64,000 nt of DNA, from positions 1,328-65,327 of the forward strand of contig JABGQS010000011.1 in the NCBI GenBank assembly GCA_018648645.1, in the 5' to 3' direction. A model generated the notes under the pieces. It worked only from the letters and a program-made list of their open reading frames with translations. It ran no database searches and was not told where the DNA came from. The translations under genes were made by a program, and so were the position numbers. This document shows positions 29,786-51,609 of this stretch, piece by piece; position 1 is the first letter of the stretch; every line of letters begins with the position of its first letter. Source of the DNA: Clostridia bacterium (GTDB lineage Bacteria; Bacillota; Clostridia; Christensenellales; SZUA-584).

Positions 29786-29819
29786 TATAATACGTCAAAT
29801 TCCTTATAAAGGATACACT

Positions 29820-31568
29820 TTGAGAGACAGCAAAAGAATTATAACGTTCATACTCGTCCTTGTGCTGGCGGTCGCAATGCTGATTGGCACCGGCCCTGCT
29901 TACGCCGCCGCTTACTATACCGATGTGCGCGTTCTTCTTTCGGTAGACGGCAATAAGTCTGTCGATATCGAGCTGATTGGTGAATACTACCTCAACGAGG
30001 ACCCGAGCTTTGAGTTCGAGTCCAGAGAGCTGACTATATCGATGGTTGGCAGCAGACCGCTTCTCACATCGGGCGGCAACACTTTTACTGCGTCTTCGAT
30101 AACGCTGATGAGCGGCGACTACGACGGAACTTCCTCGTATATCAGGCTCACTAACTCCAGATACGGAGTAAGCACTTACCTCGGTAACATGACTTTCGAC
30201 ATCAGCGGCGGCGACATTCGTGTCATCAACACTTTACCGATAGAGCACTATTTATACGGCGTTGTGCCTTATGAGATGAGCAACACTTTTCCGATTGAGT
30301 CGCTGAAAGCACAGGCTGTCTGTGCGCGGGGCTACGCGGTGGCAAACTGTTCGAAATATCGACTGCGCCCGTACGACATTCTGGACACCTCAGCCGACCA
30401 GGTTTACCACGGCTATGCCAGCAAATATACGCGGGCAATTGCCGCAGTTGATGAAACTTTCGGGCAGATACTCACTTACGACGGCGATATCATCCAAGCA
30501 TACTACGCTGCCAGCAACGGCGGGCAGACCGAGCTCACGGGAAATGTGTGGTCTAGCAATCTGCCCTATTATGTGCAGAGAGATGACATCTATGACATAG
30601 AAAACCCTCACAGCTTGGAGGAAAAGTCCTTTGTTCCAGCGCAGTTTAGCGAGCAAACTATCGCGCTTATGGACCCGCTGGTTCTGATAATGCTGCAGCA
30701 AGGCGCAGACAAAGCCGCGGGAGCGCAGGTCACATTGCTCGGCACCGTGCGAATAAAAGCGCATTCCGCGATTTATGACCCGCCCAGCCGTCTATATACG
30801 CAAGCTGATGTCACTCTTATGGTCGCTGCGGGTGACGGCGAACAAGGGCAGGTTACGTTCACTATATCGCTTGACGACCTCGTAGAAACGGACGACAATC
30901 CTGACGGCATTTTTAATACCGGCAAGAGAACCCTTCGTTTGCGCAGCGCGCAGCCGGGCGTGCTCACCACGGACGGCAACGAGTATGACGGGTGGTTTAT
31001 CACCAATCGGCGCTACGGTCACGGCGTAGGCATGAGCCAGCGCGGCGCAGAACAGCGCGCCTTCTTTGGGCAAACCTATTCACAGATACTCGATTTTTAT
31101 TATGCGGACACGGCAATTCGCTCTATAGGCAGCTTTGAGACTGCCCCAACACTTTCGAGCGAAACATATACCATTTCTGCTGTCGGCGTCAGCGGCATTG
31201 CTCCGGGTACAGCTTCGGACGAGCTACTTGACGGAATTTCCACAACTGAGGGCGGCATTATCGTCATCTCATCAACAGGCACCGAGAAAACGAACTCTCT
31301 GCTGAAAACCGGCGATTTTGTACGGACGGTGTACGGCGAGAGCGACTCATATTTTGACCTGCCCGTCCTGATTTTCGGCGATATAGACGGCAACGGCAAA
31401 ATAACGCAGGGCGATCTCGACACGCTTTCTGCGCACCTGCTGAATACCAACAGGCTGACAGGTGTATATCTAAACGCGGCAGACGTCAACCACGACAACG
31501 CAGTAGACAGTCTCGACATTTTGCTGCTGCTAAAGCATATACAAGGCAACTTTTCGATAGAGCAATAA
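29820..31568 (+). CDS. SpoIID/LytB-domain protein with a C-terminal type-I-like dockerin
   Basis: SpoIID motifs 'IEHYLYGVVPYEM', 'KAQAVCARGYA', 'YYAASNGGQTE', 'GHGVGMSQRGA'. Dockerin duplicated calcium loops 'GDIDGNGKITQGDLDTL' and 'ADVNHDNAVDSLDILLL'. TTG 29820 follows an AAAGGA ribosome-binding site. The ORF-track start at 29757 coincides with the -35 box. Confidence 0.85.
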   Translation: MRDSKRIITFILVLVLAVAMLIGTGPAYAAAYYTDVRVLLSVDGNKSVDIELIGEYYLNEDPSFEFESRELTISMVGSRPLLTSGGNTFTASSITLMSGDYDGTSSYIRLTNSRYGVSTYLGNMTFDISGGDIRVINTLPIEHYLYGVVPYEMSNTFPIESLKAQAVCARGYAVANCSKYRLRPYDILDTSADQVYHGYASKYTRAIAAVDETFGQILTYDGDIIQAYYAASNGGQTELTGNVWSSNLPYYVQRDDIYDIENPHSLEEKSFVPAQFSEQTIALMDPLVLIMLQQGADKAAGAQVTLLGTVRIKAHSAIYDPPSRLYTQADVTLMVAAGDGEQGQVTFTISLDDLVETDDNPDGIFNTGKRTLRLRSAQPGVLTTDGNEYDGWFITNRRYGHGVGMSQRGAEQRAFFGQTYSQILDFYYADTAIRSIGSFETAPTLSSETYTISAVGVSGIAPGTASDELLDGISTTEGGIIVISSTGTEKTNSLLKTGDFVRTVYGESDSYFDLPVLIFGDIDGNGKITQGDLDTLSAHLLNTNRLTGVYLNAADVNHDNAVDSLDILLLLKHIQGNFSIEQ

Positions 31569-31581
31569 GGGGGAAATCCAA

Positions 31582-32811
31582 TTGAAAGCACACTTAAAAG
31601 TGAAAAGAATTCTCGCCACTATAATAGTACTGATTATATTAGCCGCGCTGCCGACACTCGCGTTTGCCGCCGATATCAACGTCGCTGCAGATACGACATC
31701 GGTGCAGGTCGGAGACAATGTAACCGTTACCGTGACTGTGCAGGCAGACCATATCGCAGTTGCAGACGGCGTGTTTACATACGACCCTTCGCTGCTGTCA
31801 TACATCAGCAGCACGGGCGGTGCATCGGACGGTTATATCAACCTCGTTTCGCTGCAGGAAGGCGGCAGCTCATCACTTACCACCGTAATCAAATTTGCTG
31901 CCATCGGCGATGGCGAAGCGATAATCGACGTATCTATCGAAAACACGCTCAGTTATGACGGAGAGAGTCTTGGAAGCGCGCAGGCGGGCGTCAGCATAAC
32001 CGTAGCTTCTTCGGGCGACTCGTCAGAAACGGACGGAGACACAAGCGCTGTCCTCGACTTGTCACAAACAGGGATTTTAGCGCAAAACGTGCTCGGCACC
32101 GATGCGCAAATGTACATCTGGCCCTCACTACGAAACCTGTCACTGCCCTCCGGCTTTACAGATCGGCAAGTTACCTACAACGATGAGTATGTGGGCGGTG
32201 CGGCGATCCCCGACATCGAAGATATATTGCTGCTGTACTTGTCAGAAACAGCGGGCGAGAACGCAGGTTACTATATTTACGATCAAATCAATGATGTATT
32301 TTTCCCATACCTGACAGTGACTTCGATATCCGCAAAGTTCACACTTCTTTGGCCGAACGAGAGCATAGAAGTCCCGGAAGGCTTTGAGCAAACTACGCTG
32401 ACTATTGGCGAGCGGCAAATGCCCGCATGGACATATCCGGGCCCCAGCGAGTCAGTTTATCTCGTATACGTACGCAGCGCATCAGGCGAGGTAGGATTCT
32501 ATCTGTACAACACGGAGGACAGATCGCTCCAGCGCTATGATGCAAATGCGCAGCAAAGCCCAGAGCCGGCGGCAACCCCGCAGCCCTCGCCGACAGCAGC
32601 GCCTACGGCAACTCCTGCACCCACGCAGGTCGCCGATAAGCAAACGGACACAGCTGTAAAAATTGAGCCCGCTATTCTCATAGTTGTGCTTGCAGCATGT
32701 GCGTTGTTTGCAGTTGCAGCCATCGTTTTTGCGCTGCTGTACTTGCGCAGTTCATCGCGCCAAAAGAAGGAGCGGAAAAAGTCCATACATATCAAGAAGG
32801 CTGATTTATAA
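31582..32811 (+). CDS. Cohesin-like domain protein with a Pro-rich stalk and C-terminal TM anchor
   Basis: A signal peptide is followed by 'VQVGDNVTVTVTVQADHIAVADGVFTYDPSLLSYIS...AIIDVSIEN', a cohesin-type beta-sandwich pattern. C-terminal 'PEPAATPQPSPTAAPTATPAPT' stalk, TM helix and KKERKK stop-transfer sequence. Confidence 0.65.
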   Translation: MKAHLKVKRILATIIVLIILAALPTLAFAADINVAADTTSVQVGDNVTVTVTVQADHIAVADGVFTYDPSLLSYISSTGGASDGYINLVSLQEGGSSSLTTVIKFAAIGDGEAIIDVSIENTLSYDGESLGSAQAGVSITVASSGDSSETDGDTSAVLDLSQTGILAQNVLGTDAQMYIWPSLRNLSLPSGFTDRQVTYNDEYVGGAAIPDIEDILLLYLSETAGENAGYYIYDQINDVFFPYLTVTSISAKFTLLWPNESIEVPEGFEQTTLTIGERQMPAWTYPGPSESVYLVYVRSASGEVGFYLYNTEDRSLQRYDANAQQSPEPAATPQPSPTAAPTATPAPTQVADKQTDTAVKIEPAILIVVLAACALFAVAAIVFALLYLRSSSRQKKERKKSIHIKKADL

Positions 32812-38912: not shown

Positions 38913-39842
38913 ATGAGCTTCAAAATCAAGAACTTTACAATGCGCGCTTTTAACAACGATGTCAACAACACCGGCAATTTAAGCGACAAATACAGCGATT
39001 GGTCGGCATACAGAAACGATGTCACACAATTTGTGAAAAGCGCAGCCCACGGGTCGCAAGACGCAAAAAGCATTATCGTACTTGGCTCTGGCGAGTGCAA
39101 CGATGTTGACCTAAAGTTTCTTTTGGACAATTTCGAGCGTGTCGTTTTGACGGATGTGGACGAGCAGAGCATATATGACGGAATCGCGCGGCAGGGAATT
39201 GCGGATGCGATGCGATTCGAGGTTTTTCAAACCGAATACACCGGGCTGGAAAACGCAGGTTTCTTTGACACTTTATCCGCGCTTTGCAGCGATAACACAC
39301 CCGTGCTCGAGATCTGCGAGTTCATCAAAAACGCTCTCACCAATGTGCGCTCTGCCGATATGAGCAAGCTGGCGGAGGGCGGTTTTGACGTCGTCCTCTC
39401 CTGCCCCATATACACTCAGATTTTGTTTACGCAGGCTGAGGTGCTTATGGAAATCCTCGCGCACTACAGCACATATTCACACGATGATATGCACATGCTG
39501 CTGCAAAGCGTCAGCAATAACATGCCCGCGCTCATAAAGAAGTACAACGATCTGCTGTTGTCCGTGACGAACCCGAACGGCAAATTAGTCGTGCTTTCGG
39601 ACGTAATCGAGACACACCCCGACGGCGAGCTTGTGCAAACGATAAGCGAAATACTTGCCGCGCAGCCGGTGGACAGCCATGCGCTGGAGCACTTGATTCA
39701 CGGCCATGGTCTTAAGTTCGGGACGCTCGGCAGGCACGACCTTCTTCACAAAACCGATGTAACCGATTCCCTATGGTGCCTCTGGCCGTTTGACGAGAAT
39801 CGGCATTACTTGGTCAGCGGCATTCTCGCAAGCAAAAAGTAG
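38913..39842 (+). CDS. Hypothetical protein, possibly a Rossmann-fold SAM-dependent methyltransferase
   Basis: GGAGG ribosome-binding site. 'IIVLGSGECND' (motif-I-like) and 'VVLTDVDEQS' (motif-II-like). The function call is weak. Confidence 0.45.
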   Translation: MSFKIKNFTMRAFNNDVNNTGNLSDKYSDWSAYRNDVTQFVKSAAHGSQDAKSIIVLGSGECNDVDLKFLLDNFERVVLTDVDEQSIYDGIARQGIADAMRFEVFQTEYTGLENAGFFDTLSALCSDNTPVLEICEFIKNALTNVRSADMSKLAEGGFDVVLSCPIYTQILFTQAEVLMEILAHYSTYSHDDMHMLLQSVSNNMPALIKKYNDLLLSVTNPNGKLVVLSDVIETHPDGELVQTISEILAAQPVDSHALEHLIHGHGLKFGTLGRHDLLHKTDVTDSLWCLWPFDENRHYLVSGILASKK

Positions 39843-40034: not shown

Positions 40035-40063
40035 TTGACATTGTTATTTATTTATCGTAATAT
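40035..40063 (+). promoter_or_regulatory. Near-consensus sigma-A promoter of the ArsR/Mbx-like operon
   Basis: TTGACA (40035-40040), 17-nt AT-rich spacer, TAATAT (40058-40063). Confidence 0.6.
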
Positions 40064-40118
40064 ACGAATATATAGATATGTTAATTTTTTATCAATAATC
40101 TGATGAGGAGTATTCACT

Positions 40119-40403
40119 ATCGAAAACGTAAAGAAAAACTTTAAGCTAATTGAGCAGCAGGCAGAGCTTCTAAAAGCCATATCACACCCCATCCGACTTT
40201 GTATTGTCAACGGATTGATGTCGGAAAAAGGCTGCAATGTGTCGAAAATCGAGGGTTGCCTTGGTGTCCCTCAGTCTACCGTCTCGCAGCATTTGGGGAA
40301 ACTCAAAAGCGCGGGCATCGTTGAAGGACGGCGCAACGGCACAGAAGTAAACTATTATGTGGTTAACGATGATATCAAGAAAATCGTCAACTGCTTAAAA
40401 TAA
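40119..40403 (+). CDS. ArsR/SmtB-family winged-helix regulator (apparent non-canonical start)
   Basis: 'LLKAISHPIRLCIVNGL...STVSQHLGKLKSAGIV' ArsR HTH. The frame is open from the stop at 40104-40106. GAGGAG lies at 40105-40110. There is no ATG/GTG/TTG before TTG 40215, which would delete helices 1-2. Confidence 0.7.
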   Translation: MENVKKNFKLIEQQAELLKAISHPIRLCIVNGLMSEKGCNVSKIEGCLGVPQSTVSQHLGKLKSAGIVEGRRNGTEVNYYVVNDDIKKIVNCLK

Positions 40404-40437: not shown

Positions 40438-40923
40438 ATGAAAAAAACAATTTCTACATTTCTGGTTTTGTTGGCCATATGGGTGCTGCTCACAGGTTTT
40501 AACTGGATGGAAGTCGTTCTTGGCGCGGCCGTATCATTAGTGCTTGCCATTATTATTTCCAGATTCGTAAACTATTCATTTGGCTTTGGCATTATCCTTG
40601 GACTAATCAAGTTTATCGTAATCTACATTCCGGTCTTCATATTTAAACTTGTGCTTGCCAACATTGATATCGCTTATCGGGTGCTAAGCCCAAAGCTTCC
40701 TATCAACCCCGGCATAGTGAAAGTCCCGACAAAACTGAAAAGCGACTTTGGCAAATTCGTGCTTGCAAACTCTATCACGCTGACACCGGGCACACTCTCG
40801 CTAGACGTTGAAGATGACGAAGTGATTGTGCATTGGGTTAACGTAAAAGGCAAAACTTCGGGCGAGCATCAAAGCAGAATTTCCAAAACGTTCGAGAAAC
40901 TGCTTGGAGGTATAGTCAAATGA
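40438..40923 (+). CDS. MrpE/MnhE-like subunit (MbxA position)
   Basis: 'ANSITLTPGTLS' MnhE signature. N-terminal TM helices. ATGA overlap with the next gene. Confidence 0.85.
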   Translation: MKKTISTFLVLLAIWVLLTGFNWMEVVLGAAVSLVLAIIISRFVNYSFGFGIILGLIKFIVIYIPVFIFKLVLANIDIAYRVLSPKLPINPGIVKVPTKLKSDFGKFVLANSITLTPGTLSLDVEDDEVIVHWVNVKGKTSGEHQSRISKTFEKLLGGIVK

Positions 40924-41174
40924 TTATAAACATCATTGTATTTTCGCTGGTTGGCGTTGGCGTGCTGTTCGCGCTGATTCGGCTAATCGCCGGTCCGACC
41001 GCGTTCGACAGAGTCGTAGGGCTCGATACGCTCAACATCATCATCACTGCAACTGTTGTGCTGCTGGCGCTGGTGCTAAAAAACGAGCTGTATCTCGACA
41101 TAGCGATTGTATACGCGGTTCTTTCATTCCTTGAAACCATACTATTCGCTAGATTTTTGGAGGGCAGACGATGA
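40920..41174 (+). CDS. MrpF/MnhF-like subunit (MbxB position)
   Basis: 84 aa, three TM helices, 'IAGPTAFDRVVGLDTL'. Confidence 0.85.
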   Translation: MIINIIVFSLVGVGVLFALIRLIAGPTAFDRVVGLDTLNIIITATVVLLALVLKNELYLDIAIVYAVLSFLETILFARFLEGRR

Positions 41175-41482
41175 TTATTACTTCTTATATATTAATGATA
41201 ATAGGCGCGATTTTTCTGGCACTAGGGGGCTTTGGCGTTTTTAGAATGCCGGACGTATATAACCGCATCCAAGCCGGAACGAAAGCAACCACGCTGGGTG
41301 CGTTCGCGCTGATACTCGGTGTCGGGTTCGCTGAACCCAGCTGGTTTCTAAAAATCGCACTCATCATCGTGTTTATCGCGATAACCAACCCGGTCGGAAG
41401 CTCTACGCTTGCCCGGGCGGCCTACAAAAGCGGTGTTAGCGCAACGCTTTTGCAAAAGCAGAAAGAAGGTGAAGACAAATGA
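41171..41482 (+). CDS. MrpG/MnhG-like subunit (MbxC position)
   Basis: 'FRMPDVYNRIQAGTKATTLG' MnhG/PhaG motif. Confidence 0.85.
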   Translation: MIITSYILMIIGAIFLALGGFGVFRMPDVYNRIQAGTKATTLGAFALILGVGFAEPSWFLKIALIIVFIAITNPVGSSTLARAAYKSGVSATLLQKQKEGEDK

Positions 41483-41733
41483 CAATTCTGCAAATCGTTG
41501 AAATTGTTGTCGGTGTCGCCATGATTGTCTTCGGAATACTGGCAATCAACACCAAAAAATTAATCAACTCGGTCATCTTCCTCTCCGTCATAAGCATGCT
41601 CGCTGTGGTGAGCTTTATGCTGATGAGAGCGCCCGACGTTGCCATCACAGAAGCGGTTATAGGCTCCGGGCTCGTAACGGCAATCTTCGTGTTCACGCTG
41701 TATACTACGAAGAAAGCAGGTGAGAAGATATGA
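41479..41733 (+). CDS. MbhD/DUF4040-family subunit
   Basis: 84 aa, three TM helices, 'RAPDVAITEAVIGSGL'. Confidence 0.8.
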   Translation: MTILQIVEIVVGVAMIVFGILAINTKKLINSVIFLSVISMLAVVSFMLMRAPDVAITEAVIGSGLVTAIFVFTLYTTKKAGEKI

Positions 41734-42488
41734 AACAAGTAGTATCTATACTGTTAGTATTAGCAGTCGGCTTCTTCATCTTCTCCGCGCTATACTTCCC
41801 AAACCAAGGAGACTCCGCGTTTGACAGCTATGGCGAAGTGGATTTGGACGAGCGCGTATCAAGCAGCTTTATCGACAAAAACGTAACAGGCGAAAATGAC
41901 GAAGTGGTGTTTGGAGAGTCGGCAAACCTTGAAGACGGCTCGGCAAACTACGTCACGTCAGTCATCGTCAACTATCGATCGTTCGATACGCTTGGCGAAG
42001 TCACCGTGCTGTTCATCAGCGCATTCGGCGTTGGACTGCTGCTAAGCGGACGCCGCAAGAAGCAGGCTTTTGCGCATCAACCAAACTTCATACTCAAATA
42101 CGGCGCACGTCTTGTGTTTGGCATCATGGTCATCTTCGGTGTCTATATGTTCTCTCACGGACACTTGGCACCGGGCGGCGGTTTCCCCGGCGGCGCAATC
42201 ATTGCCGCGGCACTCTTGCTGCTGTATCTCGCCGACAACGACTTTAGGGCAAAGATGAAAGCGTTCAAAGTAACCGAAGGCATCGCAGGCAGCATATACG
42301 TGATTCTGGGGCTTCTCGCCATCGTGATTGGCGGCTACTTCCTGATGAACTTCCTGCCCACCGGCATCGTCGGTACGATATTCAGCGCAGGTCTCATCCC
42401 AATCATCTACGTGTTGATTGGTCTCAAGGTCGGCAGCGAAATCGCCGGCATCGTAGACAGTTTCCTGACAGTGGAGGTGGAGAAATGA
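41730..42488 (+). CDS. MnhB/MrpB-like subunit
   Basis: 'NYRSFDTLGEVTVLF' and 'GHLAPGGGFPGG' motifs. Confidence 0.85.
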   Translation: MKQVVSILLVLAVGFFIFSALYFPNQGDSAFDSYGEVDLDERVSSSFIDKNVTGENDEVVFGESANLEDGSANYVTSVIVNYRSFDTLGEVTVLFISAFGVGLLLSGRRKKQAFAHQPNFILKYGARLVFGIMVIFGVYMFSHGHLAPGGGFPGGAIIAAALLLLYLADNDFRAKMKAFKVTEGIAGSIYVILGLLAIVIGGYFLMNFLPTGIVGTIFSAGLIPIIYVLIGLKVGSEIAGIVDSFLTVEVEK

Positions 42489-42820
42489 TACAGTATCTTT
42501 CAATTGCACTGATGTTGGTCGGAATATATGGGCTGCTTAGTCAAAGAAACATGATTAAGCTCATCGTTTCGCTCAACATCTTCGAAATCGGACTCAATAT
42601 CTTCATTGTTTCCATCGGGTTTGTGAAGGACGGTCTCGCACCGATTCTGACATCGAACCATAACAGTTCCGCATTGCTTTATGTCGATCCGCTGCCTCAA
42701 GCAATGGTGCTGACAGCAATCGTCATCGGCGTTGGCATTACAGCGCTCGCATTGGCGCTCGCACGAAAGCTATACAAAACGCACGGAACATACGAATTAG
42801 ACGAAATGGAGGGCGAATAA
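42485..42820 (+). CDS. MrpC/NuoK-like subunit
   Basis: 111 aa, three TM helices, 'DPLPQAMVLTAIVIG'. Confidence 0.85.
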   Translation: MIQYLSIALMLVGIYGLLSQRNMIKLIVSLNIFEIGLNIFIVSIGFVKDGLAPILTSNHNSSALLYVDPLPQAMVLTAIVIGVGITALALALARKLYKTHGTYELDEMEGE

Positions 42821-42821
42821 T

Positions 42822-44255
42822 ATGAATCCAGCTCTTTTGATAGCAGCTCCATTACTAGCTGCGTTTATCGCAGTAATATTCAAAAAGATTGACAAAGTTG
42901 TCCTTGGGGTTGTCGCAGTCGGCAACATCGCCTACAGCATTGTCATGGCTGTGCTTTTCACAGGCGCGACGCAAATAGCGATTGGCGGGTTTGCACCGCC
43001 GTTTGGCATCAGCCTCGTTTTGGACAGCTACAGCTTAATCGGCATATTGCTGGTCAACGTCGCGTTCGGTCTCATCCTGTTGATGGGCACCAAGCTGGTT
43101 GGCAGATACGGCATCGTGTTGGCGGTCTCGCTGGCAGCGCTTAACGGCATCGTGCTGACAGGCGACTTGTTCAACCTGTTCGTGTTCATCGAGGTTGCGG
43201 CAATCAGCGCATACATCATGACAACAATGAACAAGCAGCTAAAGCACACGTTTAATTATCTGATACTCGGCACTTTGGCTTCGGGACTGCTGCTGTTTGG
43301 CATCGCGGTGCTATACAACATGTTCGGCTCGCTGAACATCATCGACATTGCTAGCAAACTTGCGATCTCCGGCGTTTCTGCCGGCGCAATGGTGCTGCCG
43401 ATAGTGTTTATCTTCGCAGGACTGTCGGTCGAAGCCAAGCTGATTCCGTTTGGCGGTTGGGTGCGAGGCGTGCTGAAAAAAAGCAACAGCCTTGTCGGAC
43501 CATTGCTGGTCACGGGCTATGCCGCCGCGATACTTTTGGTGTTCGGCAGGCTGACAAGCACCATCTTCATAATGAGCGACGGGCTTAAAATCGCACTCAC
43601 CGTTGTCGCAGTGGCAACGCTGGTGCTTGCGGAGTTCACGGCGTTCAGCAAAAAGAACCTGCGAGAAGTGCTGTTGTTTAGCAGCATCGCACAGTCAGGG
43701 TTGGTCGTCGCGCTTTTCCTAAACGGATTAACGGTGGCAGCGATTCTCGTGCTGGTCAACAACGTTGTCAGCAAACTCGTGCTGTTCGCGCTCTCGGCAA
43801 AAATCGCGGACGACACCGGCACAGACAAAATATCCGAGCTAAAGGGCGTGTTCACAAAATACCGCGTGCTTGGCGTAGGGTTCACAATCGCGGCAATGTC
43901 GCTGATTGGTCTGCCGATGTTCTTTGGCTTTGTCGCCAAGGCACAGGCAGTAATGTCGCTGTTTGAAAGCGGCAACCTATGGCTTCCCGCCGTCATCCTC
44001 CTCGTGAGCGTGATCGAAGGAATCTACATTATAAGAATACTAACAACGCTTTGGAACTCGGGCAAAGAAGGACAGGTTCCAAGCAAAGATGCGCAAAAGG
44101 AATACAAGTTAAACGGGTTTGTGAAGGTGAGCATCGTAGCTCTCGTCATCGGCGTTCTAATCGTCGCCGCGGGTATCCTTCCCATTACAAACATAAAAGA
44201 GTTTTTGAGCTCAGATTTCCTGTCATTTATAACGCGCAGCATGGGAGGTGTTTAA
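42822..44255 (+). CDS. Antiporter-like subunit 1 (divergent MrpD/NuoN family; MbxH position)
   Basis: 477-aa polytopic protein with the NuoL/M/N-type helix pattern but weakly conserved core motifs. Confidence 0.75.
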   Translation: MNPALLIAAPLLAAFIAVIFKKIDKVVLGVVAVGNIAYSIVMAVLFTGATQIAIGGFAPPFGISLVLDSYSLIGILLVNVAFGLILLMGTKLVGRYGIVLAVSLAALNGIVLTGDLFNLFVFIEVAAISAYIMTTMNKQLKHTFNYLILGTLASGLLLFGIAVLYNMFGSLNIIDIASKLAISGVSAGAMVLPIVFIFAGLSVEAKLIPFGGWVRGVLKKSNSLVGPLLVTGYAAAILLVFGRLTSTIFIMSDGLKIALTVVAVATLVLAEFTAFSKKNLREVLLFSSIAQSGLVVALFLNGLTVAAILVLVNNVVSKLVLFALSAKIADDTGTDKISELKGVFTKYRVLGVGFTIAAMSLIGLPMFFGFVAKAQAVMSLFESGNLWLPAVILLVSVIEGIYIIRILTTLWNSGKEGQVPSKDAQKEYKLNGFVKVSIVALVIGVLIVAAGILPITNIKEFLSSDFLSFITRSMGGV

Positions 44256-46091
44256 ATGGGTATTAGTATAGGAGTCGGCACTATAATCGTAGGACTGCTG
44301 ATTAGCGCAGTGCTTGCGTACGTGCTCACGAAAATCAACAAAACAACCGGAGCTTGGGTAACTGTACTCGCACCTTTCCTCGCGCTTGCCGCAGTATTTT
44401 TGCTGCGGGACAGTATAGGCACCACCTACTCGCTGTTTTTCCTCGAGTTCGAACTTACCGAATACGGCTGGTTCTTCTCGATGATTATGCTTCTTGTGTT
44501 TGCCTGCGTGTCGTTCTTCAACGTCTACTGGATGAAAAAGATGGTCCACCCGGCAGCTTACAACATGCTGTATCTTTTGGCACTCACGGGCACGCTTGGT
44601 GCTTTCATGGCAAAGGATTTCATCGGGCTGTTCATCTTCTGGGAAATGATCGTGTGGTCATCGATGTTCATTATACCGTTTGGCAAAAGCAGAAAGGCGT
44701 CTGTCGTGTACTACGCGTTTAGCGCGCTAGGCTCGCTCGCCATGCTATACGGTATATTCTATCTGTACAACGCATTTGGCAGCTTCAACATACAAGAAGT
44801 GCTAAAGCTGGCTGCGACAGACACGACGGCGGCGCTCGTCGCGTTTATCACCATCGGCATCGCCGGTATGGTAAAGCTCGGCGTGTTCCCGTTCCATCTG
44901 TGGCTGCCACGTGCGCACGGCAACGCACCCGACACCTTCTCCCCGATACTCTCGGGCGGGCTGGTCAAGGCGGGCGGCTTCGCTGTGTTCCTGATCGCTG
45001 TGGTCATGCCGTCATACGAAGCGTTTGCGACGCAGCTGCAGTTTATGGGCGTGTCGATAACAAGCTACATATTCATACTGTTTGGCGCGGTCAGCATTGT
45101 TGTGGGCACGCTGATGGCTATCAAGCAGGATGACTTCAAGAAACTAATCGCATACTCGTCCGTGGCCAATGCGGGCTACATCATCATTGGTCTTGCAATG
45201 ACAGACGCACTAAGCGTCGGCGGAGCGTTTATGCACATATTCGCACACGCACTGGCAAGCGCTGCGGCCTTCCTTGCGGTGGCTGCGGTGTCGCACAGAA
45301 CGGGCACAACCAAAATGAGCGAGCTTGGCGGTCTGATACACAGAATGCCGCTGACCTACCTCGTATACCTTATCGCGATTATATCGATGGCGGGCATACC
45401 GCCGATGGCCGGCTTCATCAGCAAATGGATGCTGTTCCAGTCGATGATCGATAACGGTATGGTGTTTGTGGCAACGGCTGCGTTCTTTGGCAGCATCGGC
45501 TCGTTCCTCTACGTGTTCCGCCCATTATCCGCTGTGTTCTTAGGGCAGCTTTCACCAAAGCACTACAAAGTCAAGAAAGCGCCTGTGCTGATGATGATTC
45601 CGATGATTATACTATCGGGCTTGACAGTGCTGTTCGGCATTTTCCCGAACATCGTGCTTCGCATCGTCAGCAGGATACAAACTTCGGTTGGCATGGAAGG
45701 CTTGCAGTTTGACGGAACAAAGATTATCGGAAGCAACGGGTCGCTTGACCCGACGCTGATTGTGGTGATATTCGGTATCGGCTTTATGATTGCGCTGGTT
45801 ATCTTCCTGCTCCATCCGAAATCGAGAAAAGTGGAGCTTATGGACACGTACACAGCTTCTGAGTTTATCTATACACCCGAGCTGCTGCATTACTCGCACA
45901 GCTTCTATGCGCCGTTCGAGCGTCTGTATAAAAACGCGCCCGACACAAGCAAGTGGTACAAGGCGATATTGAAAAAAGTGTCCGAGATTGGTGGATTCGT
46001 CAGCTACGCGTTCTTTAGCAGCAAACCGAGAATTGTGGTTTTCTGGATAGTGATTGCGATGGTAGCATTATTGTGGGGTGGCAGCGTATGA
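44256..46091 (+). CDS. Antiporter-like subunit 2 (MrpD/MrpA/NuoL family; MbxH' position)
   Basis: 'FWEMIVWSS' and 'FPFHLWLPRAHGNAPDTFSPILSGGLVKAG' are a classic proton-antiporter-M core. Confidence 0.85.
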   Translation: MGISIGVGTIIVGLLISAVLAYVLTKINKTTGAWVTVLAPFLALAAVFLLRDSIGTTYSLFFLEFELTEYGWFFSMIMLLVFACVSFFNVYWMKKMVHPAAYNMLYLLALTGTLGAFMAKDFIGLFIFWEMIVWSSMFIIPFGKSRKASVVYYAFSALGSLAMLYGIFYLYNAFGSFNIQEVLKLAATDTTAALVAFITIGIAGMVKLGVFPFHLWLPRAHGNAPDTFSPILSGGLVKAGGFAVFLIAVVMPSYEAFATQLQFMGVSITSYIFILFGAVSIVVGTLMAIKQDDFKKLIAYSSVANAGYIIIGLAMTDALSVGGAFMHIFAHALASAAAFLAVAAVSHRTGTTKMSELGGLIHRMPLTYLVYLIAIISMAGIPPMAGFISKWMLFQSMIDNGMVFVATAAFFGSIGSFLYVFRPLSAVFLGQLSPKHYKVKKAPVLMMIPMIILSGLTVLFGIFPNIVLRIVSRIQTSVGMEGLQFDGTKIIGSNGSLDPTLIVVIFGIGFMIALVIFLLHPKSRKVELMDTYTASEFIYTPELLHYSHSFYAPFERLYKNAPDTSKWYKAILKKVSEIGGFVSYAFFSSKPRIVVFWIVIAMVALLWGGSV

Positions 46092-47044
46092 TTACGATAA
46101 TAATAAGTATCTTAATAGCGCTCGGCATATTGGTGTTTGCGTTCCTATGGCAGACAACGCTGAGCGGAATAACAAGAAAAATTGTGGGCAGATACCAAAA
46201 GCGCTACGGTCCTAGGTTCTACCAGAACTTTAGAGACATCTTCAAAGCGCTGAGCAAACGCGGTATCACGCACGGATGGGTGTACAGCTTTGGCGTTATC
46301 ATGGCGGTCGGCGGTATCATGGCAACGGTCATGTTCCTGCCCCTGTTCGGCATCGTGCCGTTCCCGGGCGTAGACAACTTCTTCATCTATGTCTACCTGT
46401 TCGCTGTCGGAATGCTTGGCATGGCGATGAGCGCTGTAGGCTCGGGCAACCCGCTTGCCGGCATCGGCGTTATGCGCGCACTCACGCAAATGGTCGGCTA
46501 CGAAGTGCCGTTCATGATTGTAGTATTAGCGATGATATACGGACACGGCACAAGCTCATTGTCAGAGCTTGCGGCAATCCAGCAGACATCGGGCTTTCTT
46601 AGCTGGAACCTCGTCAAAATGCCGATTGGCACTATTGTCGGGTTTATATGCCTGCTTGGAATGCTTGGCAAAAAGCCGTTCGAGACCTTTATCGCACCCG
46701 CAGAGATTGCTTCTGGTCCGATGGTCGAATACGGCGGCAAGCAGCTTGGTATGCTGATGATTATGCACGAGCTGGCGACGTTTATCGAAATCAGCTTGTT
46801 CGTAAACTTGTTCCTTGGCGGCGCAACACCGATAGTGTTTGGCGAGACAACCGTGCTAGTCGGGCTTTCATCAGTCGTTGGGTTCCTGCTCAAATACTCT
46901 ATTGTATATATAGTGAGCGCGCTGATAAGCAACGCACTCGGACGATTCAAAATAGACCAAGTTATAAAATACTTCTACAAAGTGCCGATCGTTTTGGCGA
47001 TTATCCAAGCATTGATTGTAGTGTTCCTGGGATGGGGGGTATAG
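46088..47044 (+). CDS. NuoH/HycD/MbhM-like membrane subunit
   Basis: 'RKIVGRYQKRYGPRF' signature. ATGA overlap with the preceding stop. ORF open from 46073. Confidence 0.85.
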   Translation: MITIIISILIALGILVFAFLWQTTLSGITRKIVGRYQKRYGPRFYQNFRDIFKALSKRGITHGWVYSFGVIMAVGGIMATVMFLPLFGIVPFPGVDNFFIYVYLFAVGMLGMAMSAVGSGNPLAGIGVMRALTQMVGYEVPFMIVVLAMIYGHGTSSLSELAAIQQTSGFLSWNLVKMPIGTIVGFICLLGMLGKKPFETFIAPAEIASGPMVEYGGKQLGMLMIMHELATFIEISLFVNLFLGGATPIVFGETTVLVGLSSVVGFLLKYSIVYIVSALISNALGRFKIDQVIKYFYKVPIVLAIIQALIVVFLGWGV

Positions 47045-47047
47045 CAG

Positions 47048-47608
47048 ATGAGTAAAAAAGAAAGAGCTGTAGCAAAACGAAAAAAGAAATGGGATGGCAT
47101 AAGCAACTTCTTTAGAGCCAATTCCATATGGATGCTGATGTATTGTACGGGGTGCTGCGCGATCGAGCTTCCTCAAGCCATGACCAGCAAATACGACATG
47201 GAGCGCCTTGGCATGGGCCCAATGGCAACGCCAAGGCAAGCCGACGTTATATTGGTAACAGGTTACCTTAGCGTAAAAACGCTTAGGCGCGTCATCTATG
47301 CTTACGAGCAAATGGGCGAGCCGAAATATTTGGTGGCGTTTGGCCCTTGCACAATCAACGGCGGCATCTATTACGACGCGCATCCGGTCATCAAGAGTCT
47401 TGACCAGTACCTGCCGATAGACGTATATATCGCAGGTTGTATGCCAAAGCCCGAGGCCGTAATGAACGGGTTCCAAGACTTAATTGATATGATTAAGCGC
47501 AAAGAAGCCAACGGATGGCGCAAGTACCAAGAGAACAAGGAATGGTACAGAGAAAATCAAATTCACGCGCTTGGCGAGCTGCGCATTAAGGATGAGTTCC
47601 ATGAATAA
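47048..47608 (+). CDS. NuoB / hydrogenase small-subunit-like [4Fe-4S] subunit (MbxJ position)
   Basis: 'GCCAIE', 'GPCTINGG' and 'GCMPKPE' give the four Cys of the N2-type cluster. Confidence 0.9.
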   Translation: MSKKERAVAKRKKKWDGISNFFRANSIWMLMYCTGCCAIELPQAMTSKYDMERLGMGPMATPRQADVILVTGYLSVKTLRRVIYAYEQMGEPKYLVAFGPCTINGGIYYDAHPVIKSLDQYLPIDVYIAGCMPKPEAVMNGFQDLIDMIKRKEANGWRKYQENKEWYRENQIHALGELRIKDEFHE

Positions 47609-48119
47609 TATAATTAAAGAATTTGTTGATAATGTGACTGCAAAGTTTGAACTTATGGGCGTCGATTATCCGGCAGACCTGCAAGTCTCGCTCGACTTTG
47701 ACCAGCGTGACATTCACAACGCGCTGGCGTACATAAAAGGCGCAGGCTGGACGCAGATGTCTCTATTGACGTGTGTGGACTGGATAGCCGATAATGAATT
47801 TCAATTGGTGTTTATACTGTTCAATTGGAAAAACGGCGTGCGGTTGCAGGTGCGTACGCGGATTGACCGCGACAAACCTGTTTTCACGACGATCACGAAC
47901 ATATACCCCGGTGCGCAGTACTACGAACGCGACGTGCACGAGTTTTTCGGTGTCGAGTTTGAGGGAAATCCCGACTCGTACAAGCAGCTGTTCCTAGAGA
48001 ACTGGGACGATATCCCGCCGCTGAGAAAAGACTTCGACGCGATTGCTTATTCGGACAGAAAATACCCCGCAAGAAAATACAAAGCGAATTTCAGCACGGA
48101 AGCAGGTGAGAGCAAATGA
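47601..48119 (+). CDS. NuoC (30 kDa)-like subunit (MbxK position)
   Basis: 'YYERDVHEFFGVEFEGNPD'. ATG 47601 overlaps the upstream stop. ORF open from 47571. Confidence 0.85.
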   Translation: MNNIIKEFVDNVTAKFELMGVDYPADLQVSLDFDQRDIHNALAYIKGAGWTQMSLLTCVDWIADNEFQLVFILFNWKNGVRLQVRTRIDRDKPVFTTITNIYPGAQYYERDVHEFFGVEFEGNPDSYKQLFLENWDDIPPLRKDFDAIAYSDRKYPARKYKANFSTEAGESK

Positions 48120-49222
48120 AAGAAGTAAAACTTTTTGTTGGACCACAGCATCCGGGAATGCACGGCAACGCAAGTATTCATATGTACGTTGACGGCGATA
48201 TTATAAACAGGGCTTATTTGCTTCCGGGAATGCTTCACCGAGGTTTCGAAAAATCGATGGAGAAGCGCACGTGGATGAACAACATCGCGCTGATACCGCG
48301 CATTTGCGTGCCCGAACCCGACACAAACGAGATGGTTTACGCGATGAACATCGAAGCGCTGGCCAATATCGAAGTGCCGGAGCGAGCGCATTGGATTCGC
48401 ATGCTGGTGCTTGAGCTTGCTCGGCTCGCTATCCATTTGATGGCGTTTGGCGGCTGCGGCGGCCCGACAGGGCTGTACACTGCAATGTACTGGGCGCAGG
48501 CCGACAGAGACGGCATCCTCGAGCTGTTTGAAGAGATCTCCGGACAGCGCATATATCACATGTATATCGTTGCAGGCGGCGTTCGCAAAGACCTGCCAAA
48601 AGGCATCGAGAAAAAGATCATAGCGTATATTGACGACCTTGAGGCTAGGCTTCCCGACTATGAGGAGTTGGTACTCAACAACCCGTCGATACGAAAAAGA
48701 CTTGTAGACAACATCATTCTTCCAAAAGAAGTGGTTTGGGAGCTTGGCGTTACGGGTATCGGCATGAGAAGCGCAACAGGCGAGCCGTACGACCTGCGAA
48801 AAGTGACACCTTATGCAAGATACGACAAGGTGGAGTTTGACGTGCCGACAGCAACGTATTCGGACGCACAGACCCGAATGACGCTAAAGTACTTAGAGAT
48901 GTACCAGACGATTCGCATCATCCGCCAAGTGCTGGACATGATGCCAAAAGGCAAAGTCAGGGCCAAAGTTGACGACGGAAGCGCGCTGAGATGGAAAGTG
49001 CCTGCAGGTCAGGTATACAGCGCAGTCGAAGCGAGCAGAGGCGAATACGGCTACTACACTGTGTCCACAGGCGAGCTGATGCCATACCGCGTGGCGGTGC
49101 GAGGAGCGTCGTTCCCGCAAGGTCTGCTGGGGCTGGAGAAATACTTACCGGGTCACAGAATTGACGATGCACCACTCTGGTTTGACACGATGGGCATCTG
49201 TTCACCGGAAATCGATAGATAG
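48116..49222 (+). CDS. NuoD / [NiFe]-hydrogenase large-subunit homologue lacking two of the four Ni-Fe cysteines (MbxL-like)
   Basis: 'GPQHPGMHG' N-terminus. The N-terminal ligand motif reads 'RICVPE' (Cys64, Glu67) and the C-terminal motif reads 'GICSPEIDR' (Cys362, Glu365). Confidence 0.85.
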   Translation: MKEVKLFVGPQHPGMHGNASIHMYVDGDIINRAYLLPGMLHRGFEKSMEKRTWMNNIALIPRICVPEPDTNEMVYAMNIEALANIEVPERAHWIRMLVLELARLAIHLMAFGGCGGPTGLYTAMYWAQADRDGILELFEEISGQRIYHMYIVAGGVRKDLPKGIEKKIIAYIDDLEARLPDYEELVLNNPSIRKRLVDNIILPKEVVWELGVTGIGMRSATGEPYDLRKVTPYARYDKVEFDVPTATYSDAQTRMTLKYLEMYQTIRIIRQVLDMMPKGKVRAKVDDGSALRWKVPAGQVYSAVEASRGEYGYYTVSTGELMPYRVAVRGASFPQGLLGLEKYLPGHRIDDAPLWFDTMGICSPEIDR

Positions 49223-49234
49223 GAGCGAAAGCAA

Positions 49235-51058
49235 ATGAGTAAAAATAGTATAATTGCCCCATTAAAGGGCTGGAAGTATCTGTTCAAGAAACCCATTAGC
49301 GTTCCTATGGATGACATCTTTAAGAACCCTAGAGAGTCTCGTGATAACTATAGAGGCTTTCATGTGAACGATTGGGAAAAATGCATCGGCTGCGGCACGT
49401 GCGGCGAAATCTGCCCGACCAAAGCAATCACGATGGTCGAGCGCGGCGAGATCGAGGAGAAAGACGGCGTGAAAGCAGAGCGTCCTGTCGTAGACTACGG
49501 CAGGTGCTGTTTCTGTGGCTTGTGCGTGGATATCTGCGCATCGGGTTCGCTGAACATGACCAAAGGTTATCTGTTCAATTCATCCGACCCTGAGAACTAC
49601 ATTCACATGCCGAGGGAATTGGACATCACGGGCAAGGAGCATAAACTCGGCTACGTGAAAGACGAGTCTTCGGACTTGCTTGACCTAGAGCGCAAGCACA
49701 TGGAGCAAGTGGATCCGGGCGAACGCAAAAACTCGTTTGTCGAAATTGTTCGCGGTTTTTCTAAGCAGCAGGCAATTGCCGAATCCGCAAGATGTGTGGC
49801 GTGCGAAATCTGCACAAAAACGTGCCCTGCCAACATGAACATCCCCGATTACATTAAAACCATTTGGGACGACAAAGTTGAAGACGGGCTGGAGATACTA
49901 TACGAAACAAATCCGCTGCCGTCGGTGTGCGGTCGCATATGCACACACATGTGCGAAGACGCTTGCGCAATCGGCAACCGCGGAGACGCAGTCGCTATAC
50001 GATGGCTAAAGCGCTATATCGTGGACAACATGCCGGACGAGCAGTACGAGAAGCTGGCACTGGCGAGCGTGTCTAAAAAAGGCAACGGCAGAGTTGCAAT
50101 CGTGGGCGCAGGCAGCTCCGGGCTTTCGGCCGCGTATTATCTGACAACGCTAGGATACGAAGTGGAAATGTACGAGAAGCTGCCACTAGCCGGCGGACCG
50201 ATGCGCTACGGCGCGCCGCGATATCGCCTGCCCGACGACGTTGTTGACAAGGATATCGGCTTTATCGAAAAGCTCGGTGTCAAGATTAACACCGGCGTGG
50301 AAATCGGTAAAAATATTATGCTCGGAGAGCTTAAAGATAAGTTTGACGCTGTGTTTGTCGCGACAGGATATCCGCACACGCAGCACCTCGATATCGAAGG
50401 CAGCGAGCACAACGACGTCATTGAAGCGATGGATTTCCTGGAGGAATCTGCAGATTATGTCCGCGGTGTTTCCGCTATGCCGGACATTGAAGAAAACGTA
50501 GTGGTCATCGGCTCGGGCAACGTTGCTTTCGACGTAGCGCGGACGCTGATACGCTTCCAGAACGAGAAGTTTGGCAAGTCTAGTGTGATGATGATGGCGC
50601 TTGAGCGCGAGGATCAAGTCCCCGCAGACGCCGAGGAAGTTGAAGAAGGCACAGCCGAAGGCATCATATTTAACCTAGGCTGCGGACCGCAGAAAATCGA
50701 CATCAACGAGGATACAGGTGCTGTTGCTTCTGTCGAGGCGCACGCTTGCACACGGCTGTTTGACGAAAAGGGCAAGTTCGCTCCGGTGTTCGACCCAAGC
50801 ATCACGCAGTGCGTTATCACCAAGCAGGTTTACTTGGCTATCGGTCAAGTTCCCGACTTTTCATACATCAGCGACGAGCTTCAATCGAAAATGGACTTAA
50901 CCGGCGGCAAAATCAAAGTGGGTCCGCTCGGCGAAGTGAAAGGCATGCCTTGGCTGTTTGCAGGCGGCGACATCGTGCACGGCATGGACATCATCAACGG
51001 CGTGGCCGACGGTCACAAAGCGGCGCTCGGTATCGACAAGTACCTTTCGAAGAAATAA
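49235..51058 (+). CDS. Fusion of a NuoI/MbhN-like 2x[4Fe-4S] domain with a GltD/SudA/NfnB-type NAD(P)H-FAD oxidoreductase
   Basis: 'CIGCGTCGEICP' and 'CCFCGLCVDICA' (NuoI-like). 'RCVACEICTKTCP' and 'CGRICTHMCEDAC' (GltD N-terminal clusters). 'VAIVGAGSSGLSAA' (FAD), 'VVVIGSGNVAFDVA' (NAD(P)H), 'FAGGDIV'. Confidence 0.85.
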   Translation: MSKNSIIAPLKGWKYLFKKPISVPMDDIFKNPRESRDNYRGFHVNDWEKCIGCGTCGEICPTKAITMVERGEIEEKDGVKAERPVVDYGRCCFCGLCVDICASGSLNMTKGYLFNSSDPENYIHMPRELDITGKEHKLGYVKDESSDLLDLERKHMEQVDPGERKNSFVEIVRGFSKQQAIAESARCVACEICTKTCPANMNIPDYIKTIWDDKVEDGLEILYETNPLPSVCGRICTHMCEDACAIGNRGDAVAIRWLKRYIVDNMPDEQYEKLALASVSKKGNGRVAIVGAGSSGLSAAYYLTTLGYEVEMYEKLPLAGGPMRYGAPRYRLPDDVVDKDIGFIEKLGVKINTGVEIGKNIMLGELKDKFDAVFVATGYPHTQHLDIEGSEHNDVIEAMDFLEESADYVRGVSAMPDIEENVVVIGSGNVAFDVARTLIRFQNEKFGKSSVMMMALEREDQVPADAEEVEEGTAEGIIFNLGCGPQKIDINEDTGAVASVEAHACTRLFDEKGKFAPVFDPSITQCVITKQVYLAIGQVPDFSYISDELQSKMDLTGGKIKVGPLGEVKGMPWLFAGGDIVHGMDIINGVADGHKAALGIDKYLSKK

Positions 51059-51079: not shown

Positions 51080-51110
51080 AAAAAGACCTGCAAAGTGCAG
51101 GTCTTTTTTT
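51080..51110 (+). terminator. Strong terminator closing the 13-gene operon
   Basis: aaaaagacctgca-aag-tgcaggtcttttttt. Confidence 0.8.
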
Positions 51111-51189
51111 ATCATGCTATAAAAGACATATTAACAACTGCGGCATATCAAATTTCAATGCGCCGTTCTTCGCCCTTGCCCGCTAAACG

Positions 51190-51609
51190 CTACTCAATCC
51201 TCAAAAAGTTCTTTATAGAATCGAGTATCTCCTGCAAGTCAGTGATGACCTCATTGGCAGATTCCATGCTAACCGCAAGCTCCTCGAGCGAGCTCGTGAT
51301 ACTCTCTATATCATCCTCGTATTGCATAAACGAGTTCTCTACAGCAGCAATCTCCTCTTTTATCTCCTGCGTAATCTCGTCCACTTTGCCCTCCAGCTCG
51401 CCCATAAACATCTGCGACAAAGCGGTGAAATCTATCGGCGACTGCTCGCCCATGTTCTCTTCAATTTCGTCAAGCTGTCTTTGGATGCTGCGAAGCTCCT
51501 TCTCGACCCGCTGGTTCGAAATGTACAAGTAAGCCGCGAGGGCACCCGTCACCGCCAAAACAACGGCGAGCATGATAATCACTACTCTTAATAACGTTTT
51601 TTCTTTCAT
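51190..51609 (-). CDS. Single-pass membrane coiled-coil protein
   Basis: N-terminal TM helix 'VVIIMLAVVLAVTGALAAYLY', then an acidic heptad-like region. Lies downstream of the GT2-PilZ gene. Confidence 0.6.
   Translation of the reverse strand: MKEKTLLRVVIIMLAVVLAVTGALAAYLYISNQRVEKELRSIQRQLDEIEENMGEQSPIDFTALSQMFMGELEGKVDEITQEIKEEIAAVENSFMQYEDDIESITSSLEELAVSMESANEVITDLQEILDSIKNFLRIE

Follow-up and report, generated by a model that had tools for sequence, protein, structure and literature searches.

The present analysis concerns a stretch of 64,000 nucleotides (hereafter the window) from a Clostridia bacterium (assembly GCA_018648645.1, contig JABGQS010000011.1, positions 1,328 to 65,327, forward strand), and especially the gene located at 49235-51058 of this window, which encodes a NuoI/MbhN-like connecting subunit fused to a flavoprotein of the GltD/SudA/NfnB type. 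This gene closes a series of 13 genes of the + strand that overlap or lie tightly together (40438-51058), and its product is the last (N) subunit of a bacterial membrane oxidoreductase of the MBS/Mbx type, linked to an Mrp-like arm. The 607 codons form a single open frame without any stop or frameshift, and every motif quoted in the preliminary description of the locus was found. The protein carries a CxxCxxCxxxC motif at C50/53/56/60 (followed by P61) and a second copy at C91/94/97/101, and then 'RCVACEICTKTCP' (residues 186-198), 'CGRICTHMCEDAC' (residues 232-244), 'VAIVGAGSSGLSAA' (residues 287-300), 'VVVIGSGNVAFDVA' (residues 422-435) and 'FAGGDIV' (residues 575-581). Pfam assigns residues 45-104 to a Fer4 dicluster domain, residues 165-268 to Fer4_20 (PF14691, E 3e-29), a domain typical of dihydropyrimidine dehydrogenase (DPD), GltD and NfnB, and residues 286-584 to Pyr_redox_2 (E 5e-19), and NuoI models of NCBIfam match residues 3-123 (E 1e-32). 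The two-part nature of the protein announced by the preliminary description is thus backed by sequence and profiles and, as detailed below, by fold. Since the alignment with free NfnB begins, at the N-terminus of the latter, near residue 155, the fusion corresponds to an entire N-type subunit joined head-to-tail to an entire NfnB-like protein. The region joining them is conserved (Y112, P126, L151 and R153 invariant). The fused architecture already has a curated NCBIfam model, NF010590/PRK13984 ('putative oxidoreductase'), which covers residues 1-606 (model positions 6-608 of 611, E 2e-251); the score (835.6 bits) is under the curated equivalog cut-off of 946, with an identical architecture.

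An identical 607-aa protein is encoded on three contigs belonging to independent ENA and JGI assemblies. Full-length proteins (571-670 aa, with a coverage of 93-100% and an identity of 52-87%) make up nearly all of the best 120 homologues retrieved from a collection of 5.8 billion proteins, and they have the same domain set. No protein of this collection shows more than 87% identity to the window fusion protein, and those from metagenome-assembled genomes (MAGs) of Christensenellaceae and Anaerofustis show 68-70%. Full-length relatives are also present in closed chromosomes and in isolates (Petrotoga spp., Haliovirga abyssi, Halanaerobium saccharolyticum and Prolixibacter denitrificans). The search for the same fusion in other genomes that had been proposed in the preliminary description, done here on one genome per species, revealed at least 596 species genomes that encode a relative, spread over more than 10 phyla. 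The carriers include Bacillota, Mycoplasmatota (Izemoplasmatales), Thermotogota, Bacteroidota, Spirochaetota, Cloacimonadota, Marinimicrobia, Aminicenantes, WOR-3, Bipolaricaulota, Chloroflexota and one Thiotrichaceae MAG. Furthermore, the replacement of NuoI by a gltD-related flavoprotein was described in 2015 for the Thermotoga mbx-like operon (Degli Esposti 2015, PMC4758237). The novelty first attached to the fusion was therefore overestimated: the window gene joins a known and widespread family without biochemical characterisation and is not itself a discovery. Members of this family are commonly mis-annotated as glutamate synthase small chain, NADH dehydrogenase or hydrogenase ('group 4g hydrogenase').

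We compared the proteins of the window operon with those of 80 related loci, whose fusion proteins show down to 41% identity to that of the window. The colinear 13-gene operon ending in the fusion was found in 54 of the 55 loci that had at least 8.9 kb of upstream DNA, and the remaining 25 loci, with less upstream DNA, agree with the same operon. The sole exception is the Thiotrichaceae MAG (L081, 9998-12298), where the fusion (594 aa, same domains) has no preceding membrane operon and lies between a polyprenyl synthetase gene and a rubrerythrin-like gene; the membrane genes may be elsewhere in this genome, or the fusion protein may work alone there.

Table 1. Genes, domains and signals of the operon and its immediate surroundings (coordinates of the window; chain identifiers of 6U8Y designate subunits of the Pyrococcus furiosus MBS)
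Feature	Coordinates	Strand	Evidence
Divergent class-I S-adenosylmethionine (SAM)-methyltransferase-like protein, putative, 309 aa	38913..39842	+	AlphaFold2 fold only
Promoter-like site TTGACA-17-TAATAT	40035..40063	+	Consensus scan 10/12; pattern match only
ArsR/SmtB-family helix-turn-helix regulator	40119..40403	+	HTH_5 E 4.5e-8; NF033788 55.8 bits, cut-off 55
MnhE/MrpE-like membrane subunit (MbsA position)	40438..40923	+	PF01899; TIGR00942 E 5e-32
MrpF-like (MbsB position)	40920..41174	+	PF04066; NF009246 112.8 bits, cut-off 92
MrpG/MnhG-like (MbsC position)	41171..41482	+	PF03334; NF009314 112 bits, cut-off 102
MbhD-like (MbsD position)	41479..41733	+	PF13244; PRK08378 E 3.5e-18
MbhE + MnhB-like (MbsE position)	41730..42488	+	PF20501, PF04039
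MnhC/NuoK-like (MbsG position)	42485..42820	+	PF00420 E 2e-24
MrpD-like antiporter subunit (MbsH), 477 aa	42822..44255	+	6U8Y_H E 4e-45
Second MrpD-like subunit (MbsH'), 611 aa, C-terminal extension	44256..46091	+	6U8Y_X E 9e-68; NF006419
NuoH-like membrane anchor (MbsM)	46073..47044	+	6U8Y_M E 5e-55; next match 5e-20
NuoB-like (MbsJ), proximal [4Fe-4S], C33, C36, C37, C101, C131	47048..47608	+	6U8Y_J E 4.5e-64
NuoC-like (MbsK)	47571..48119	+	6U8Y_K E 5e-23
NuoD-like (MbsL), without NiFe ligands	48116..49222	+	6U8Y_L E 7e-85, full length
Fusion: MbsN/NuoI-type domain, two [4Fe-4S] motifs, residues 1-133	49235..49633	+	6U8Y_N E 2e-27 over residues 3-118; NuoI models
Fusion: linker, residues 134-154	49634..49696	+	L151, R153 invariant; L148, L149 nearly so
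Fusion: NfnB/GltD-type module, residues 155-607 plus stop	49697..51058	+	5JCA_L, 4YLF_B and GltD matches; Foldseek
Bidirectional terminator hairpin, 13-bp stem, A/T-run flanks	51080..51108	.	Terminator scan

The preliminary description had placed a pyridine-nucleotide site on an Mrp-coupled complex devoid of NuoEFG. The gene content of the operon bears this out, since none of its genes encodes NuoE, NuoF or NuoG and it contains only Mrp-like and NuoH/B/C/D-like genes besides the fusion. The Mrp coupling stands; the identity of the complex can be refined to the MBS/Mbx type and not the MBH type. Indeed, all seven subunits compared with the PDB (H, H', M, J, K, L and N) match best the MBS of Pyrococcus furiosus (6U8Y, formerly Mbx), and MBH, complex I, NDH and FHL come far behind. 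Thus, the L homologue matches MbsL far better (E 7e-85) than MbhL (1e-34), and the J homologue matches MbsJ (E 4.5e-64, gap-free alignment) far better than MbhJ (1e-27). Both systems have the same 13-gene order (Mrp-like A-G, H, H', M, J, K, L, N) and two MrpD-like pumps, H' having a long C-terminal extension in both; residues 10-603 of the window H' align to positions 7-611 of the 618-aa 6U8Y_X, and this protein scores 686 bits with NF006419 (cut-off 617). The Thermotogota 'Mbx' operon (TM1205-TM1217 in Thermotoga maritima, Theba_1796-1808 in Mesotoga) belongs to the same family: loci of Petrotoga, Kosmotogaceae and Thermotogaceae MAGs have the same colinear operon and a fused N subunit 47-55% identical to that of the window. 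The 13-subunit MBX of T. maritima has been discussed as an MBS homologue (PMC9431562). Unlike these thermophilic Thermotogota, the host of the window is an uncultured Clostridia-like member of the Bacillota, and the window operon is not followed by a rubrerythrin gene. The SpoIID and cohesin/dockerin genes, the tmRNA and the housekeeping genes speak for this placement of the host.

The subunits that surround the catalytic pocket are also of the MBS type. In the L homologue, 'RICVPEPD' (C64) and 'GICSPEIDR' (C362) stand where the NiFe CxxC motifs would be; the equivalents in MbsL are 'RICVPEPD' and 'NCPPDIDR', so that in both proteins a single cysteine followed by xP(E/D) is left per motif and the second motif reads CxP(E/D)IDR. 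Since both NiFe CxxC motifs are lost, the complex is not a hydrogenase, and an assignment to [NiFe]-hydrogenases (MBH/Ech, 'group 4g') was rejected, MbsL being moreover the far better match. Catalysis in MBS takes place at the proximal [4Fe-4S] cluster of MbsJ, held by only three cysteines (C28, C93 and C123), whereas MBS can do without C25 of MbsJ and without C85/C385 of MbsL (PMC7684303). The corresponding C36, C101 and C131 are the sole universally conserved cysteines of the J homologue in the related loci; C33 (equivalent to C25) is Cys or Gly, and the MbsL cysteine varies (C/A/S/N). At the level of sequence, the fusion family therefore appears to conserve exactly what MBS needs at its proximal cluster. 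The J motif has the same length in the window and in MbsJ, shorter than that of MBH.

The residues 155-607 were compared with solved structures. They match best the large subunit of NfnI (5JCA_L, E 1e-63, ~31% identity), T. maritima NfnB (4YLF_B, E 7e-62) and Xfn (5VJ7, 1e-61), followed by the GltD-like domains of NfnABC and Stn (2e-58 to 2e-52), GltD (E 8e-51) and DPD (E 1e-32), with 219 bits for NfnB compared to 176 for GltD. With 65 homologues as input, AlphaFold2 gave a confident model of the fusion as a single body (mean pLDDT 85.5, pTM 0.79; low only at residues 1-3 and 166-171), and Foldseek relates it to NfnI-L (5JCA_L, E 1e-43, TM 0.87, rmsd 2.7 A) and to GltD (TM 0.86). Assignment to the GltD/SudA/NfnB family thus holds, with the precision that the module is nearer to NfnB than to GltD and has lost the arginines that bind the 2'-phosphate of NADPH. 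GltD proper (glutamate synthase) was rejected because of this closer kinship with NfnB, of the lack of GltB and of a different operon context. GltD and the domains I-III of DPD nevertheless share their fold and cofactor set with the module, in spite of the weaker match and of the absence of GltB or pyrimidine domain in the window, and provide a mechanistic precedent for a non-bifurcating transfer from NAD(P)H to FAD, to two [4Fe-4S] clusters and to the clusters of a partner.

According to the preliminary description, a lack of cofactor-binding residues in the GltD-like part on careful alignment would have refuted its reading; on the contrary, they are invariant across the 80 loci. All 16 cluster cysteines are conserved in every locus, including those of the N-type domain (79 of 79 loci) and of Fer4_20 (C187/190/193/197 and C232/236/240/244), as are E241, which forms the 'CE' after the third cysteine of the second Fer4_20 motif as in the 'QCE' of NfnB, the FAD site G291xG293xxG296, E314 (position of the FAD ribose ligand) and R331. 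The latter equals R187 of T. maritima NfnB, which hydrogen-bonds the flavin N5 (PMC6405883). The two cluster motifs, the glutamate of 'CE', the Rossmann folds for FAD and nucleotide and the arginine at flavin N5 thus link the fusion to NfnB/NfnI-L. The nucleotide site is G426xG428xxA431, with glycines invariant in the 80 loci, L456-E457 ends beta-2 of the second Rossmann fold, and GGD at residues 577-579 is invariant or nearly so. Three features distinguish the fusion from NfnB/NfnI-L: the absence of NfnA in the operon, the covalent attachment of the module to a subunit of a membrane complex, and the replacement of YRR by (L/I)-E. More precisely, the 'YRR...AR' of NfnB, NfnI-L and NfnA(ABC) aligns to 'ALE' in the window fusion, and the family reads (L/I)456-E457...A464-(D/S)465 after beta-2, with L/I-E in 80 of the 80 loci. 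An acidic residue ending the beta-2 strand of a Rossmann fold is the classical fingerprint of a preference for NAD(H). In NfnB, two conserved arginines bind the 2'-phosphate of NADPH (PMC6405883); since these are replaced here by the invariant (L/I)-E, NADH is the likelier nucleotide, and we predict that the module uses NADH rather than NADPH. For NfnB, docking of ferredoxin is predicted at the distal Fer4_20 cluster (PMC6405883); in the fusion, the ferredoxin-like NuoI domain is covalently positioned to stand in for ferredoxin. No dedicated partner gene (NfnA/SudB or GltB) was found in or next to the operon, either in the window or in the 80 loci.

The functional alternatives put forward in the preliminary description, namely a complex driven by NAD(P)H, an Rnf-like coupling machine or a delivery of electrons to sulfur or another acceptor at the L/J pocket, are the relevant ones. 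The above data lead us to propose, with a probability of about 0.5, that the fusion provides an MBS-type ion pump with a built-in NAD(H) dehydrogenase module and that the acceptor is sulfane sulfur. NADH would give a hydride to FAD, from which single electrons would travel along the two Fer4_20 [4Fe-4S] clusters and then the pair of NuoI-type clusters to the proximal cluster of the NuoB/MbsJ-like subunit. The substrate, most probably sulfane sulfur (polysulfide) as in the Pyrococcus MBS, would be reduced in the hydrophobic MbsJ/L/M pocket beside the membrane arm, and this redox chemistry would drive Na+/H+ translocation via the Mrp-like arm. Reduced ferredoxin may also feed the same Fe-S wire. 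The flavoprotein would therefore be the functional counterpart of the NuoEFG N-module of complex I, a soluble NADH-oxidising flavoprotein that feeds an Fe-S chain via NuoI and NuoB. NuoEFG is unrelated in sequence and fold to the NfnB-like module (FMN and NuoF fold compared to FAD and NfnB fold), so that, if their function is the same, the solution is convergent.

Several lines of evidence point to this scheme. The strict conservation of the MBS-type three-cysteine proximal cluster argues for a continued turnover of a substrate at the J/L pocket. As for the acceptor, sulfane sulfur is suggested by the conserved features of this pocket, by the homologous operon of T. maritima, in which mbxA is up 4.4-fold with S0 (PMC9431562), and by a gene encoding a CoADR/NSR-like disulfide reductase (443 aa) found within 3.5 kb downstream of the operon in four loci (L014, L017, L019 and L022; Izemoplasmatales). 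The MBS itself couples a ferredoxin-dependent reduction of polysulfide or dimethyl trisulfide to ion translocation. The energy available would be limited. Electron transfer from NADH (-320 mV) to polysulfide (about -260 to -270 mV) yields ~10-12 kJ per 2 electrons. This is of the same order as the energy span of MBH, which conserves energy on 12 kJ/2e- (PMC8165549).

Other observations weigh against this proposal. Electron transfer from NADH to sulfane sulfur has only a small driving force, and the Pyrococcus MBS takes ferredoxin and not NAD(P)H. Its MbsN is a free two-cluster protein of 208 aa fed by ferredoxin, whereas the N subunit of the window carries an extra NfnB-like module of ~450 aa. 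The clusters of NfnB have very low potentials tuned for bifurcation (PMC6405883); with an NfnB-like flavin environment, a simple transfer from NADH to the clusters could thus be uphill. The J homologue of the window combines, in C33-T-G-C36-C37, the CxxC spacing of MBS with a tandem Cys-Cys as in complex I. Whereas the three-Cys ligation of MbsJ leaves one open Fe, the additional C37 could make the proximal cluster four-Cys ligated, and hence not MBS-like, in the clade of the window; this residue is present in 16 of ~68 loci, all from the closest clade, and is replaced by Gly in the others as in MbsJ. Moreover, published genome-based models consider bacterial Mbx as a ferredoxin:NAD(P)+ oxidoreductase (including PMC4758237), the expression of mbx is low in Mesotoga grown on thiosulfate, and in the searchable literature we found no report on the biochemistry or structure of the fused bacterial complex, nor on the purification or assay of any member of the family.

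A more general view, which we consider only as tentative, is that the NfnB-like module is a convergent N-module and that the family constitutes a widespread NADH-driven, ion-pumping sulfane-sulfur reductase, i.e. a sulfur-respiring analogue of complex I. If true, the energy available to this enzyme would be only ~10-12 kJ per electron pair, and fermenters from more than 10 phyla could conserve energy by re-oxidising NADH with S0 or polysulfide, a route that today's metabolic reconstructions do not include. The complex could also operate in reverse and produce NADH in sulfur oxidisers, of which the Thiotrichaceae carrier is an example. The choice between NADH and ferredoxin as the donor, and between sulfane sulfur and NAD+ as the acceptor, decides the ATP gain of the fermenters and their link to the sulfur cycle.

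The main competing explanation, which is unlikely yet deserves serious consideration, corresponds to the 'Mbx' model used before 2018, i.e. an Rnf-like ferredoxin:NAD(P)+ oxidoreductase that would reduce NAD(P)+ at the fused FAD and build an ion gradient, storing ~25 kJ per 2 electrons; in the reverse direction, the gradient would make reduced ferredoxin. Such a reaction is comfortably exergonic (about -450 mV for ferredoxin and -320 mV for NADH; PMC10734219), an NfnB-like module suits the exchange of electrons between low-potential clusters and a nucleotide, and the operon is found in many fermenters from habitats that are perhaps devoid of S0. This model has been applied to the operons of Thermotoga, Mesotoga and Caldanaerobacter in published interpretations of their genomes. 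However, the path from ferredoxin to the NuoI clusters and FAD bypasses the proximal cluster of the NuoB subunit and the J/L/M pocket, where every characterised member of the superfamily couples redox chemistry to the membrane arm (PMC7684303; PMC8165549). The strictly conserved proximal-cluster cysteines and MbsL motifs would thus be left without a role, and no coupling path is known. Furthermore, the Pyrococcus Mbx was shown to be a sulfane reductase and not a ferredoxin:NADP+ oxidoreductase (PMC9431562; PMC7684303), and T. maritima already has an Na+-Rnf while its mbx responds to S0 (PMC9431562).

A flavin-based bifurcation or confurcation between the Fe-S chain and a partner encoded outside the operon (NfnA/SudB-like or ferredoxin) appears improbable. 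All the closest solved relatives of the module are bifurcating subunits (NfnB, NfnI-L, NfnA(ABC) and Stn), and both the invariant R331, whose equivalent in T. maritima NfnB is regarded as important for bifurcation (PMC6405883), and the invariant E241 are in keeping with such an activity. Nevertheless, no NfnA-like [2Fe-2S]/FAD partner is encoded in the operon in any of the 80 loci, no high-potential acceptor is evident (polysulfide lies only ~50-60 mV above NADH), and GltD and DPD have the same fold and cofactors but do not bifurcate.

Even less credit can be given to an alternative complex I, an NADH:menaquinone oxidoreductase in which the NfnB-like module would take the place of NuoEFG and quinone would bind in the D/B/H pocket. 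Three points favor it: in the L homologue, His15 of the beta1-beta2 loop ('GPQHPGMHG'), which is lacking in MbsL, occupies the position of H38 of Nqo4; the tandem Cys36-Cys37 of the NuoB-like subunit recalls complex I; and the hydrophobic chamber of MBS coincides with the quinone site of complex I (PMC7684303). Nevertheless, the position of the quinone-ligating Tyr (Y87 of Nqo4) is occupied by Val within the MBS-type 'RICVPEPD', the His differs between members of the family (H/T/P/E/N/S/V), only one clade has the tandem Cys and all the subunits are nearer to MBS than to complex I or NDH. Menaquinone is made by the Bacteroidota hosts, which would suit this hypothesis, but quinone synthesis is not known in many of the host lineages, among them Izemoplasmatales and Christensenellaceae-like Clostridia. 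For the family as a whole, a canonical complex I or quinone reductase is therefore unlikely, given the missing Tyr, the variable His and the lack of NuoEFG. Lastly, a merging of adjacent mbsN and gltD/nfnB-like genes by a sequencing error, which the preliminary description had advised to check and for which only the generic chance of indels in metagenome assemblies can be put forward, is refuted by the continuous frame, the identical protein on independent assemblies, the full-length relatives from isolates and closed chromosomes, the conserved linker and the dedicated full-length model.

The immediate surroundings of the operon vary between lineages. In the window, the terminator hairpin lies 22 bases 3' of the stop codon of the fusion and marks the end of the operon, and the promoter-like site precedes both the regulator gene and the operon. 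In the region 40092-40403 (+), the first canonical start of the ArsR-family regulator (TTG at 40215) would lead to a shortened protein of 62 aa (40215-40403), whereas the frame homologous to the other regulators begins with ATC at 40119, 8 nt downstream of a GGAG Shine-Dalgarno sequence; the 94-aa homologues (e.g. 'MENIK...' in L003) have ATG where the window has ATC. Such a 94-aa homologue is located upstream of the operon in six loci. The regulator keeps three cysteines and weakly matches the model of the sulfur-sensing BigR, which may count, weakly, as a further link to sulfur. The presence of an ArsR-family regulator ahead of the operon recalls the control of mbs by SurR in Thermococcales.

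The protein encoded at 38913-39842 has no sequence match in Pfam, NCBIfam or the PDB and only 13 homologues in the 5.8-billion-protein collection. Its homologues (~300 aa) flank the operon, upstream or downstream, in 14 other loci of Bacillota and Izemoplasmatales. The AlphaFold2 model (pLDDT 88.6, pTM 0.88) has SAM methyltransferases as sole fold neighbours, with weak similarity (TM 0.3-0.6). The protein, whose membership in the system is uncertain, may serve to modify or assemble the complex.

Beyond the terminator, two overlapping open reading frames, 51095-51532 (+, 145 aa) and 51190-51609 (-), have no meaningful family match, and gene callers picked the latter over the former. The frame at 51095-51532, which starts inside the terminator hairpin, was not retained as a gene of the operon and is probably not a gene. 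In the flanks of the 80 loci, we found no universal redox partner (NfnA or ferredoxin); the neighbours are lineage-specific and include DHO_dh-like, CBS-domain, rubrerythrin, CoADR-like and methyltransferase-like genes. Rubrerythrin-like genes follow the fusion in 14 loci. A gene of the DHO_dh family (~329 aa, FMN TIM-barrel) follows it in 21 Bacteroidota loci, mostly within 10-30 bases (L032, L038, L041, L045, L047, L049-L052, L057, L058 and L067 among the DHO_dh-like loci). Together with the GltD-like module, this product reconstitutes the domain set of DPD; in Bacteroidota, it may serve as a 14th subunit or offer the electrons another outlet, and its gene is absent from the window.

Two other regions of the window, apart from the operon, deserve mention. 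At 803-2439 (-), the tmRNA gene (2075-2439, tag peptide AGSKASKARGTVYAKLCA) adjoins a phage-type integrase gene (803-1837), and this segment has a GC content of 35.5% compared to ~50% elsewhere; it has the appearance of the border of a mobile element inserted at ssrA. At 29757-32811 (+), a protein of 603 aa that combines SpoIID with a C-terminal type-I dockerin is followed by a protein of 409 aa with a weak cohesin match. The pairing of SpoIID, a sporulation lytic-transglycosylase domain, with anchoring modules of the cellulosome type is unusual.

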